Assembly (NCBI GenBank): GCA_046485285.1
Contig: JAWOHE010000002.1
Location: 1 to 56,201, forward strand
Source of the DNA: a bacterium
GTDB lineage: Bacteria; Hydrothermota; Tepidihabitantia; Tepidihabitantales; Tepidihabitantaceae
Reading direction: 5' to 3'
Length of the DNA: 56,201 nt
Shown here: positions 1-26,518 of the stretch, piece after piece
How the letters are laid out: every line of letters starts with the position of its first letter
How positions within the stretch are numbered: position 1 is the first letter of the stretch
Translations under genes and position numbers: made by a program
The notes under the pieces: generated by a model
Database searches by the model: none
What the model saw: the letters and a program-made list of their open reading frames with translations, nothing else
What the model was told of the DNA's origin: nothing

Positions 1-84
1 CTTGAGCACTTCCGGGTCATCCAGTAGAAACCCTTGTCCGGGCGCCTCGGCTGTGTTACTATCGGTCATTCTTCTTGTGGCCAT
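1..84 (-). CDS. 5' end of a leftward hypothetical protein, truncated by the window edge (MATRRMTDSNTAEAPGQGFLLDDPEVLK...)
   Basis: ATG at 84 preceded by AAAGGAGG 5 nt upstream; frame open to position 1; absent from the ORF track. Confidence 0.6.
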   Translation of the reverse strand, partial: MATRRMTDSNTAEAPGQGFLLDDPEVLK

Positions 85-210
85 TCGAGCCTCCTTTCGA
101 TCATAACTGACGCCACATTCTCATCGGAATGCGGCACGGCTCAATGGCCACTCTCTCTTTGCCAATTTGCAGACATTATGGCACGCAACTCCCCCTCCCC
201 CATACCCGGT

Positions 211-378
211 ATTACTCCCCCAGTAACTCCGGGGGTTACTCCGGGGGTTACTCCGGGAGTAACTCCCGGGGTTACTCCGGGGGTTACTCCGGGGGTTACT
301 GGGGGAGTTACTCCGGGGGTTACTCCCGGGGTTACTGGGGGAGTTACTCCGGGAGTAACTGGGGGAGTTACTCCGGGA
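211..378. repeat. Tandem array of 14 x 12-bp units, consensus GT(T/A)ACT(CC/GG)NGG(G/A)
   Basis: Units start at 211, 223, 235 ... 367 with exact 12-bp period; no unique spacers. Confidence 0.97.
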
Positions 379-512
379 GTGCGGGTGGGGGGTGATTTCG
401 AGCAACTCCGGGCCGGGTTCGGGAGTCGAACCGGGTGAGGGGTTCTGGCCGCGGTCAGGACCCGGGGTCAGAAGAGTCCTGTGTGCGGGCGAGTCCCGCT
501 TGAGGAGGCAAG

Positions 513-926
513 ATGCCCAATCCTGTTCCCCCGCGCGATGGCGCAATCCGCTGGGCGAAGTGGCGGGCGCGGTTCGAGCGCGACGCCGACGGCAAGCTGC
601 CCCAGGGTAGCTCCGAGATGGCCGCCCAGAGCCTGGCCAACCCGACGGTCGTGGCCCGGGTCCAGGCCGCGTTCGACAGCATGCACGCGATGGAGACCGA
701 GGTCCGGACCGTGCTGAACGCGGCCGGCGCGCCGGTCATCGCCTACATCTACTACCTCGACTTCGGCAGGGAGCTGTGGAAGCTGACCAACCGGATCAGC
801 GGCCCGGCCGCGGTCGGCGAGGCGGCGATTCTCCGGGACAAGTGGGTGGCCCGGGGCCTGTCGCCCGATCTCCTGCGCAAGATCAGCTACGACGTCTTCA
901 GCGTCAAGCTCCCGGCAGGCACGTAG
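513..926 (+). CDS. Putative SIRV/rudivirus-type (Adnaviria) major capsid protein homolog
   Basis: RBS GAGGAGG; 137 aa; motifs RxxxxRWAKWRARF and VxxVLxxxG-x8-YxxFG-x7-NRISGPAxV match the SIRV2 MCP as recalled, aligned by eye. Confidence 0.75.
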   Translation: MPNPVPPRDGAIRWAKWRARFERDADGKLPQGSSEMAAQSLANPTVVARVQAAFDSMHAMETEVRTVLNAAGAPVIAYIYYLDFGRELWKLTNRISGPAAVGEAAILRDKWVARGLSPDLLRKISYDVFSVKLPAGT

Positions 927-994
927 CAGGGACTGCCGCAGTGCGGATAGCCCGGAACGGAAGGGTGCGGTATCCGGTCATGTACTCCGGAGGC

Positions 995-1558
995 CTACGC
1001 TTCGGGCGTCTGCGAGATGGCCCAGGCCTTGCGGGCGGCGCGGTCGAGCCGGGCCAGGGTTCGGGCGATTGACTCGCGCCGAAGCCGGTTCCAGTTGCAG
1101 GCGCTGGACGAACAGGAGCGCAGCCAGAAGCCGTCCTGACGCCGCTCGCCCGCGGGCAGTCCGCACACCGGACAGCGCGGGGCCGGGTCGATGACGAAGC
1201 CGGGCGGGCAGGAAGCGGCAACCGGGCCGTCGGGGCGAGTGACGCGAATCGTCCAGTCAAGGTCGTCGACCCGGACCGAATCCTGCGGGACCCGGGCAAC
1301 ACGCCAGTTCTGCCAGAAACGGACGAGCGGGACGAGCAACTCGTCCGTCGCCGGCCCGGGCCCGGACCCGCGGCGGGCAAGCCGGACGAGGTGGAACGCG
1401 CCGTAGCCGAGCGCCAGCGCGACGAGAACCCAGTCGGCAAGCCCGAAGGTGCGGGGCAGGAGTTGCACCCGGCCCCGGGCCGCCAGGAGCCGGAACATCA
1501 GCCACACCGAGAATAGCGCCACCCCCAGCCAGGCGAGAAGCACCGCGAGGCCCTTCAT
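995..1558 (-). CDS. Hypothetical protein with two TM helices and a C-terminal zinc ribbon
   Basis: Two hydrophobic segments; CPVC...CSSSAC; promoter TTGACC-17-TAGACT 5 nt before the ATG. Confidence 0.65.
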   Translation of the reverse strand: MKGLAVLLAWLGVALFSVWLMFRLLAARGRVQLLPRTFGLADWVLVALALGYGAFHLVRLARRGSGPGPATDELLVPLVRFWQNWRVARVPQDSVRVDDLDWTIRVTRPDGPVAASCPPGFVIDPAPRCPVCGLPAGERRQDGFWLRSCSSSACNWNRLRRESIARTLARLDRAARKAWAISQTPEA

Positions 1559-21632: not shown

Positions 21633-22193
21633 GTGAGACGGCGCTTCCCGGCACTGCTGGTCCTGCTCGCGGCGGCCTGCGCGCCGCGCGTCGAGCCGGT
21701 GACGGTCGAGTTCGAAAGCCTGAGGCTCGAGGGCTTCGAGCGCGGCGTGGTCGAGCTCAAGGTCACGAACCCCAACCGGGTCGCGGTCGACCTCGAGGGC
21801 CTGCCCGCGCGTTGCGCGCAGGCGGGCCTACCCGCGCGTTGCGCGCAGGCGGGCCTACCCGCGCGTTGCGCGCAGGCGGGCCTGCGCTACTCGGCGGCGC
21901 TGGGCCGGGACACGGTCGCGCGCGGCGAGCGGGCCGAGCCGGTGCGGGTGCCGGCACGGGACACCGCCCGGGCGGAGTTCCCGCTGGAGCTGAGGCTCGA
22001 GCTGGACGGCATCTTCAGCCGGCTCGACGCGCTGCTCGACGACACGCTCCGGCTGGCGGTGGACGGCCGGTACACGGTGCGGGGGCTGTTCGGGCCGGCG
22101 CGCCGGCCGTTCCGCTACCGACACGACATCCCGCTCCGGCCCGAGGTCGACCGGCTGGTCGGGCGGTTCAAGGCGATTTTCGGGGGCGAGTAG
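21633..22193 (+). CDS. LEA_2 domain lipoprotein carrying a 27-aa repeat insertion
   Basis: Lipobox LAAAC; VTNPN motif; GLPARCAQA x3. Confidence 0.8.
   Translation: MRRRFPALLVLLAAACAPRVEPVTVEFESLRLEGFERGVVELKVTNPNRVAVDLEGLPARCAQAGLPARCAQAGLPARCAQAGLRYSAALGRDTVARGERAEPVRVPARDTARAEFPLELRLELDGIFSRLDALLDDTLRLAVDGRYTVRGLFGPARRPFRYRHDIPLRPEVDRLVGRFKAIFGGE
21800..21880. repeat. Three tandem copies of a 27-bp palindromic element
   Basis: CCT(G/A)CCCGCGCGTTGCGCGCAGGCGGG at 21800, 21827 and 21854. Confidence 0.95.
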
Positions 22194-26251: not shown

Positions 26252-26462
26252 TCGCTCCGGCCTTGCGGCCGTCGGTCGGGATGACTGTGTCCCCTTAGTG
26301 CCTTGGTGTTGCTCCGGTTCGCTCCGGCCTTGCGGCCGTCGGTCGGGATAACTGTGTCCCTTTGTGCCTTGGTGTTGCTCCGGTTCGCTCCGGCCTTGCG
26401 GCCGTCGGTCGGGATGACTGTATCCCCTTAGTGCCTTGGTGTTGTTCCGGTTCGCTCCGGCC
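26252..26462. repeat. Three tandem 66-67-bp repeats plus a partial fourth
   Basis: Units start at 26252, 26319, 26385 and 26452; near-identical, no spacers. Confidence 0.95.
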
Positions 26463-26518
26463 GCGGCGCCGGGCCGCTGTCCGTTGACAACAACGTCCCC
26501 GCCGCTACTATCGCTTCC

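Follow-up and report, generated by a model that had tools for sequence, protein, structure and literature searches.

A tandem array of 12-bp units at positions 211 to 378 of contig JAWOHE010000002.1 (assembly GCA_046485285.1) is one copy of a lineage-specific, phased, dyad-symmetric and non-coding repeat family that is physically linked to two capsid-fold gene families related to each other. The stretch of DNA analyzed, referred to here as the window, comprises positions 1 to 56,201 of that contig. The genome (designated G000; 2.34 Mb in 102 contigs, 69% GC) carries a full-length bacterial small-subunit ribosomal RNA (rRNA) gene and is that of a bacterium of the candidate division WOR-3. Next to the array stands a gene, at 513-926, whose product we assign from profile comparison and structure prediction to the SIRV2-type capsid proteins of the virus realm Adnaviria. 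We propose that the arrays are cooperative platforms for capsid-fold proteins, a reading to which we give a probability of roughly 0.4; the loading of these proteins, the identity of the array binder and its effect on expression are what we infer.

The window array consists of 14 units of 12 bases that, read directly, follow one another head to tail with zero indels, opening with ATTACTCCCCCA, continuing with GTAACTCCGGGG and closing with GTTACTCCGGGA. Tandem Repeats Finder reports it at 226-377 with a period of 12, 12.7 copies, 82% matches, 0% indels and a score of 199. Agreement per position across the 14 units, in percent, is G93 T100 T79 A100 C100 T100 C79 C79 G79 G93 G93, with 50% at the last position. 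Within each unit a GTWAC core is joined by a CCSGG/GGGGG run; each of the two motifs is self-complementary or close to it, and GGAGTTACT and AGTAACTCC are exact reverse complements. The array ends at 378, leaving 134 nt before the ATG at 513. The initial annotation had described 14 quasi-palindromic units in exact 12-bp phase ending at this distance from a gene resembling that of a major capsid protein (MCP), and its description of the array is accurate in each of these respects.

The 12-bp register extends past the array into the flanking motifs at 191-210 (CCCCCTCCCCCATACCCGGT) and 379-390 (GTGCGGGTGGGG). Folded as a single strand, the region 185-395 reaches -71.6 kcal/mol, compared with -41.9 +/- 3.2 kcal/mol in 200 shuffles (z -9.4), and none of the 200 shuffles folds as well. 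The window units abut directly, without the unique spacers between repeats that distinguish clustered regularly interspaced short palindromic repeats (CRISPR). Scans of window positions 1-1100 for sigma-70 promoters and terminators found nothing.

The whole-genome scan was carried out in full on this genome, and other genomes were covered through fetched loci. With segments called at a lag-p self-identity of at least 0.62 over 96 nt, 57 periodic segments are found at lag 12, none at lags 9, 10, 11 and 13, 3 at lag 14 and 2 at lag 15. Merging the 57 segments and adding one copy seen by eye yields 53 arrays; C1 and C34, and likewise C6 and C7, carry the same sequence at two contig ends, and the array on C21 is seemingly unrelated, which leaves about 50 distinct arrays. 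Since there are about 50 such arrays across the genome, the window array is not private to the gene at 513-926.

By consensus, the units fall into four types: type A (GTTACTCCGGGG, 16 copies including that of the window), type B (TAGGGGGAACGG, 9 copies), type C (GGTCATCCGGCC, 5 copies) and type D (GCCGCTCCCGGG, about 22 copies). Arrays hold about 10-27 units in which a GTNAC-like core alternates with a G/C run, and the number of units in type A ranges from 2 to about 20. Types A-C and some D arrays are bounded on the left by a leader, GAATTTACCCCCTCCCCCATACCC, and on the right by an end motif, GGAGTGCGGGTGGGG, each an imperfect inverted copy of the other; in most D arrays the left flank is another sequence without evident coding capacity. 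Allowing at most one mismatch, GGAGTGCGGGTGGGG occurs 27 times in G000, 18 times in G004, 4 times in G002, once in G001 and not at all in G003, and 0-2 times per genome in 36 other relatives, with 0-1 for controls. An unrelated convergent gene mostly follows, its 3' end against the right end of the array (17 of the 25 neighbors called), and a contig end lies within 300 nt of 18 of the 53 arrays. When three array loci of G000 were sought in the four sister genomes, one flanking gene was syntenic in each case and synteny broke at the array. The array family consists of many dispersed, non-coding copies with conserved end modules and variable internal modules, as is characteristic of BOX elements and miniature inverted-repeat transposable elements (MITEs), and its spread through the genome has been that of a selfish repeat, with many copies now decayed.

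At C65:3398-3466, a mini-element carries the full leader and spacer at both ends with ~4 units between them, forming a near-perfect palindrome of ~117 nt (by eye). An Rfam search with three array loci returned only microRNA-hairpin matches of 20.7-37.2 bits, far under the gathering scores of 40-110. G-quadruplex motifs (G5-N7 repeats) are visible by eye in types A and B and missing from type C and from the arrays of other genera, which eliminates the G-quadruplex as the common denominator of the arrays.

The period is conserved more widely than the unit sequence. Four GTNAC cores at 12-bp spacing match 153 times in G000, 5 times in G004, twice in G001 and once each in G008, G013, G015 and G023, and the 41 genomes searched contain 1 match at 11-bp spacing and 0 at 13-bp spacing. 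The single matches in the last four genomes are true arrays of 10-27 units, in which a GTSAC core is repeated every 12 bp and the other positions vary; arrays with unrelated units keep a period of 12 in these four genomes and at locus L044 of another genus. Within the array on contig C3 of G001, conservation over 26 units reaches 92-96% at just three positions (TCA) and is 38-81% at the rest. The orthologous arrays on C24 of G000 and C112 of G004 align without a gap over about 230 columns despite many substitutions. Judged from these alignments, the 12-bp phase looks selected, since retention of phase together with conservation of the core alone is expected from selection on spaced contacts and not from slippage that homogenizes units. 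As a separate observation, a control pattern of four CANTG motifs at 12-bp spacing gives 10 matches per strand in G013, and this genome may hold another 12-bp-phased repeat.

The protein encoded at 513-926, taken alone, is matched by Pfam family Sulf_coat_C (PF12193) at E 0.013 and 16.1 bits, under the cut-off of 25.2, and by the PDB entry 6wq0 at E 0.017 (phmmer). Its relatives number 13 in one search and 335 clusters at E <= 0.001 in another, and a profile built from 24 of them matches 6wq0 at E 2.6e-12, 3j9x (SIRV2) at 7.8e-11, 5w7g_B at 1.9e-7 and 3f2e at 0.0028. The profile alignment covers the basic N-terminal arm, and the motif R-x-A-K-W-x-A-[RK]-F is common to the WOR-3 family and the SIRV2/SSRV1 capsid proteins. 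An AlphaFold2 (AF2) model with a predicted local distance difference test score (pLDDT) of 92 contains helices at residues 10-19, 35-40, 44-71, 75-94, 97-113 and 118-129. Foldseek searches with this model place Adnaviria capsid proteins at all of ranks 1-7 and at rank 9 (probability 0.91-1.00), and the top matches 3j9x, 6wq0, 3fbz, 5w7g and 3fbl have query-normalized template modeling (TM) scores of 0.46-0.62. By family profile and predicted fold, the protein is a true homolog of the SIRV2-type (Adnaviria) capsid proteins, and the label "MCP-like" in the initial annotation was well chosen. A homodimer prediction gave a score of 0.00 and a mark of 0.42, which counts neither way.

Capsid-fold proteins of this family are found in 41 of 41 relatives, with 2-29 matches each. 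In a phylum-wide sample, all 35 further genomes of this order have the family and none of the 165 from outside it does; it is an order-level trait. A tblastn search of the capsid-fold protein against 50,697 phage records gave no match, and no viral hallmark genes are seen beside 513-926. The other genes of the window are chromosomal, among them genes for ArsR and an ABC transporter, and a Pfam scan of 4 neighboring open reading frames (ORFs) identified the capsid-like protein, one ORF without a family, a weak zinc-finger match and ArsR. The bacterial rRNA, the chromosomal neighbors, the occurrence in every relative and the lack of phage matches together dispose of the idea that 513-926 is a gene of an archaeal-virus genome.

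Some members of the family occur in other arrangements. Two capsid-fold genes stand in tandem, 15-30 nt apart and without an array, at L004 (contig C62 of G001), L005 (C5 of G018), L014 (C10 of G004) and L019 (C53 of G002), and these pairs recall the heterodimeric two-gene capsids of lipothrixviruses. A metagenomic protein of 5,799 residues (P0014) contains 40 separate stretches that match about residues 31-83 of the 513-926 protein. At L044:1810-2730, a sigma-70/extracytoplasmic function (ECF)-like ORF followed by a small ORF lies between two capsid-fold genes (named by reading).

Intact copies of the array element have, 5' of the leader, a conserved AT-richer spacer of ~90 nt that contains the palindrome GTTAGT-N4-ACTAAC, and beyond the spacer a divergent gene pointing away from the array. 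The repeated block, 600-1050 nt long, takes in the array, the spacer and the 5' part of this gene. Full-length copies of the gene encode about 270-300 amino acids with an N-terminal XRE-type helix-turn-helix (HTH) domain (Pfam HTH_31, E 3.3e-8), and the HTH-fusion family is present in 37 of the 41 relatives. Members of this XRE-HTH family, about 250-400 amino acids long, include C19:17676-18554 of G000 (L052) and its relatives P0163-P0175.

The C-terminal part of the HTH-fusion protein probably has the SIRV2-type capsid fold. The capsid-family profile matches 4 of 6 members of the HTH family in one common region (22.2, 16.0, 11.1 and 7.0 bits), and the aligned stretch contains the RL..Y/W arm and a YxFGRxxWK signature; hhalign of the two families gives a probability of 63% and E 6.8e-5. 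Using an AF2 model of the fusion protein (pLDDT 77), VIA-align ranks AFV1 ORF140 (3fbz_A) first, with Z 11.3 over model residues 130-284. Next come 5w7g_B (Z 10.7, 122 residues aligned, root mean square deviation 3.1, model residues 109-282) and 3fbl (10.7), then the SIRV coat protein 3f2e (Z 9.9) and 6wq0 (Z 9.5), so that five Adnaviria capsid entries are the top non-HTH matches. XRE matches cover residues 8-94 of the model and capsid matches residues 109-284. A PDB profile search with the HTH family returned only HTH chains and one weak unrelated match. Because these scores are moderate for helical bundles, we call the fusion probable and not certain.

By eye, the C4-type spacer accompanies a C-type array on C4 and one of type A on C26, and arrays of types A and B, though different in sequence, have a single spacer type and a single HTH recognition-helix sequence. 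Such a lack of correspondence between HTH specificity and array type is easier to explain if phase or shape is recognized than if an HTH reads the units. In the spacer palindrome, a change on both sides is seen once (C85) and a change on one side three times, too thin a record to call covariation. A spacer promoter proposed by eye (TTGACC-N17-TAACAT) was dropped, as sigma-70 and terminator scans of the canonical C101 spacer found nothing.

The arrays of G000 are short contiguous repeats that in many cases lie beside the gene of a DNA-binding protein: an HTH-fusion gene or remnant is found within 500 nt of 18 of the 53 arrays, and a solo capsid-fold gene within 700 nt of 5 of the 53. Seen from the gene side, 13 tblastn matches to solo genes were considered and kept if the 5' end was intact and at least 500 nt of upstream DNA was present. 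This excluded C82 (23 nt upstream), C16, C73 and C101, which are cut by contig ends, and C96, C4 and C62, in which the N-terminus is missing. All five qualifying genes (C98, C24, C13, C6 = C7 and C42) have an array 106-513 nt upstream; four of them follow the right end of the array in the same direction, and the C42 fragment is on the leader side. For an array at a random oriented point, p = 0.019, with the qualification that paralog copies are not independent.

Sister genomes show the same linkage in part. Arrays lie upstream of the capsid-fold genes on C112, C184, C193 and C171 of G004, with none at the tandem pair on C10, and upstream of those on C3 and C163 of G001, with none at C62 (a pair), C24, C5 and C157. 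G002 has no array at C53 (a pair) or C342; C99 of G004, two loci of G001 and C210 of G002 were left out as not assessable. The HTH-fusion loci carry arrays in G000, G004 and G001 and none in G003. Solo capsid-fold genes that have no HTH gene nearby also carry arrays (C24 and C13 of G000, and C112 of G004). The initial annotation had proposed a two-part system of a capsid protein and its own loading site, and this did not hold up, since there are about 50 arrays and only 5 of 53 are near a solo capsid-fold gene.

Passages of the structural work on SFV1 (PMC6105669) give 12 bp of DNA per capsid dimer, state that the asymmetric unit is similar in SIRV2 and AFV1, and describe the DNA of these capsid filaments as A-form. 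The 12-bp footprint that the initial annotation had attributed to a SIRV-type dimer is thus in print for SFV1, with similar units for SIRV2 and AFV1. We suggest that capsid-fold dimers, each of which covers 12 bp of A-form DNA in archaeal filamentous viruses, would load in register on the phased units, and that loading may be seeded by the HTH-fused member on the adjacent spacer palindrome. About 14-20 dimers would then make up a short nucleoprotein filament, and this filament would control the flanking genes. A filament of symmetric 12-bp dimers would select what is seen, a 12-bp step with local two-fold symmetry, and a fused HTH beside a palindrome would offer a seeding point. On a wider view, the WOR-3 order may have domesticated an A-form filamentous-virus capsid protein that, alone or fused to an XRE domain, builds short filaments on chromosomal 12-bp sites evolved to match the dimer footprint, a form of virus-derived chromatin or gene control; we think this broader scenario unlikely.

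A number of observations weigh against the arrays being platforms for capsid-fold proteins. The viral capsid proteins with this fold are not known to prefer any sequence when they bind DNA. Arrays are abundant in G000 and G004 only and capsid-fold proteins are in all 41 relatives; G013 has 29 protein matches and one GTNAC-12 match, from which it follows that the proteins do not need arrays. No capsid-fold or HTH-fusion match (E <= 0.01) lies within +/-2.5 kb of the arrays in G008, G013, G015 and G023. Outside the genus, a lag-12 signal is present in 1 of 30 scored upstream regions and the other 29 have z <= 2.8 (a few of the 30 rows are the same place fetched twice); the positive region is L044, where 28 units of ACGGTGAGGACT (z 9.6) stand about 450 nt before a distant capsid-fold ORF. 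HTH-fusion loci of other genera have an array in 0 of 9 cases. The expectation that homologs would be flanked by 12-bp arrays stands in part, for G000 (5 of 5), for two sister species and once for another genus, there with an unrelated unit, and fails for 29 of 30 regions outside the genus.

Within G000, 12 of the 53 arrays, mostly of type D and assessable on both sides, adjoin neither gene type, and the HTH gene copies beside arrays are mostly truncated or frameshifted. The copy number resembles a recent burst, as for a selfish element, and the linkage among paralogs may be inherited rather than selected. Further points on the same side concern the fusion protein: the homology scores of its C-terminal part are modest, helical bundles often reach Z ~13 in VIA-align, and Foldseek with the fusion model retrieves HTH proteins only, with no capsid match.

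An alternative reading is a selfish or neutral interspersed repeat of the BOX/MITE kind, in which the 12-bp phase is a by-product of array growth, no dedicated binder exists and the linkage to capsid-fold genes comes from the founder copy. This is possible, if somewhat unlikely in our estimate. It would account for about 50 copies whose conserved ends are imperfect inverted repeats, for the variable number of type A units (2 to about 20), for a repeated block that holds only the 5' part of an HTH gene that is broken in many copies, and for the uneven end-motif counts among congeners (27, 18, 4, 1 and 0). The proximity of 18 of 53 arrays to contig ends, the abutment of the right end on the 3' end of unrelated convergent genes (17 of 25) and the strong hairpin potential are also of this kind. 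It is less readily reconciled with degenerate arrays that hold exact phase between species with no indel and conserve only a short core, or with the same period in unrelated units of at least five other genomes when no array of period 11 or 13 was found; nor has a transposase been identified for the array element. Alternatively, the arrays may bind another protein, either through the HTH domain of the regulator, for which they would be a very long operator, or a common WOR-3 factor, with the capsid-fold domain serving only to oligomerize. In its favor, a regulator commonly has its binding site next to its own gene, contiguous short repeats in both orientations are occupied by small dimeric repressors in known cases (the omega protein heptads and ParR-parC), the GTWAC core of the unit resembles the half-site GTTAGT/ACTAAC of the spacer palindrome by eye, and arrays in other genera have no capsid-fold genes nearby. 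We nevertheless consider such a binder distinctly improbable, because A and B arrays of different sequence go with the same spacer and HTH recognition helix, the C4-type spacer accompanies two array types, and solo capsid-fold genes without an HTH gene nearby carry arrays; moreover, with a spacing of 12 bp, neighboring sites come to lie on different faces of B-DNA, an uncommon arrangement for HTH dimers.

The strict form of the initial proposal, a private packaging or nucleation site for the encapsidation of virus-like or mobile DNA, agrees with the 134-nt adjacency, the match to the 12-bp footprint and the real capsid homology of the neighboring protein. It is already largely refuted by copy number, as 57 period-12 segments in 2.34 Mb amount to about 50 arrays and not one per element; the chromosomal context, the empty search of 50,697 phage records, the lack of viral hallmark genes beside 513-926 and the presence of the family at 2-29 copies in every genome of the order searched also speak against it, and we regard it as very improbable. 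Still less credence attaches to the arrays as replication iterons or as a translated (VTPG)n peptide, the two alternatives raised at the outset, and both are rejected. Short tandem repeats do look like iterons, and the window ORF 178-438 does read MARNSPSPIPGITPP(VTPG)n. Its ATG at 178, however, lies inside an insertion sequence (IS) that occupies window positions 1-190, so the ORF is an accident of the insertion. Among 18 complete copies, the VTPG frame is open without an upstream start in 12, has an internal stop in 3 and has a start 6-9 nt upstream in 3, and none of the six frames holds a consistent ORF across them; in the other arrays, as read, the bases that do not vary take in a codon's third position as well as a single rare Ser codon. 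As for iterons, none of the 4 neighboring ORFs matches a Rep family in the Pfam scan, and about 50 origins in 2.3 Mb are implausible.

Comparison with known systems brings out what is distinctive here. With the filaments of Adnaviria (SIRV2, SSRV1, AFV1 and SFV1), the WOR-3 system has in common the capsid fold, predicted for the window protein and probable for the C-terminal part of the HTH fusion, the N-terminal DNA-wrapping arm motif of the window protein, and a period equal to the 12 bp per dimer given for SFV1 in the passages cited above; the tandem gene pairs of several genomes are likewise reminiscent of the heterodimeric capsid proteins of Adnaviria. It differs in its bacterial host and in chromosomal genes with no surrounding virus genome. 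Viral capsid proteins coat whole genomes and are not known to have a phased site. ParR-parC of plasmid R1 and the omega heptads of pSM19035 also have short contiguous direct and inverted repeats 5' of the gene of a small DNA-binding protein, and these too are expected to carry a helical array of dimers. In contrast to them, the WOR-3 units are 12 bp and not 7, 10 or 11, there are about 50 dispersed copies, and the candidate binder is a capsid-fold and not a ribbon-helix-helix protein; no partition NTPase is seen near the arrays, though ParA/ParM-type genes were not searched for.

Pneumococcal BOX elements, cyanobacterial short tandemly repeated repetitive (STRR) heptamer arrays and MITEs are similarly dispersed and non-coding, with conserved ends, variable internal modules, hairpins, assembly breaks and species-specific abundance. 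The WOR-3 arrays differ from them in a strictly phased 12-mer with a conserved 5-bp core, in four types with one period, and in their tie to two related gene families. XRE controllers and repressors (C.AhdI, C.BclI and ClgR) match the N-terminal 80 residues of the divergent protein in sequence and structure, and the palindrome in the spacer beside its gene is a further likeness; they have neither a C-terminal capsid-fold domain nor a long phased array beside the operator.

A 2026 paper (PMC13700489) still confines capsid proteins of this kind to Adnaviria, a realm of archaeal viruses. Full-text literature searches, of incomplete coverage, listed no match that joins WOR-3 with Adnaviria, SIRV2 or rudivirus, found no report of 12-bp or dodecamer interspersed arrays, and gave nothing relevant among the matches listed for WOR-3 with repeats, nucleoid-associated proteins or capsid. 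The present analysis places the capsid fold in every searched genome of one bacterial order, in multiple copies and probably also fused to an XRE domain, and shows that in one genus capsid-fold genes adjoin arrays whose period equals the dimer footprint. If the proteins load on the arrays, a viral capsid would have been recruited for cellular DNA organization or regulation, or, in reverse, the capsid would have a cellular origin. The arrays would then provide the first case of a defined DNA sequence setting the phase of such a filament, and a small protein with a 170-bp array would make a simple in vitro system for protein-induced A-form DNA. If the proteins do not load, the arrays would still be an undescribed class of interspersed repeat that breaks the assemblies of these genomes.

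The left flank of the window copy is atypical. At the start of most A- and B-type arrays, the leader motif is preceded by GAATTTA and the conserved spacer of ~90 nt; at the window copy, the IS has taken the place of the remaining leader and of the normal left flank. The sequence of window positions 1-190 recurs with 100% identity at the ends of contigs C96, C94 and C93 and with 99.5% identity at C59:231-421, and the transposase ORF of the longer C59 copy matches Pfam Transposase_mut (PF00872; Mutator/IS256 family) at E 2.1e-22. This IS end occurs 9 times in the genome, of which 6 are within 60 nt of an array and a seventh is at a leader remnant on C94. The IS256-family element thus appears to favor insertion in or at arrays (window 1-190, C7, C11, C39, C94, C95 and C96), and it is through such an insertion that the window copy has lost its HTH-gene side.

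Table. Features at the left end of the window, with ribosome-binding site abbreviated as RBS.
Feature	Position	Strand	Remarks
Left end of an IS256-family IS	1..190	-	Transposase ORF from 84, running off the contig; RBS 91-99; IS terminus 190
Leader remnant CCCCCTCCCCCATACCCGGT	191..210	+	End motif of the array family; remainder of leader and usual left flank gone
14 type A units, consensus GTTACTCCGGGR	211..378	+	Direct reading, Tandem Repeats Finder, fold z = -9.4
Right-end motif GTGCGGGTGGGG	379..390	+	Imperfect inverted copy of the leader
Spacer before the gene	391..512	+	Hairpin GCGGG-CGAGT-CCCGC 485-499; RBS GAGGAGG 502-508
Gene for a 137-amino-acid protein with predicted SIRV2-type (Adnaviria) MCP fold	513..926	+	Basic N-terminal arm and four-helix bundle

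A hairpin of the form GCGGG-N4/5-CCCGC directly before a strong RBS (AAAGGAG/GAGGAGG) recurs by eye 5' of capsid-fold genes in different genera. Such sites lie at window positions 485-508, at about 1440-1500 of L002 and at about 1050-1095 of L005; a similar hairpin followed by AAAGGAG stands before homologs in G004 and G018, and a motif ATGACATAACTAT is common to L002 and L005 (by eye). The window contains further tandem repeats, one at 26252-26517 with a 67-bp unit (3.2 copies, score 387) and one at 21797-21883 with a 27-bp unit (3.2 copies, 98% matches).

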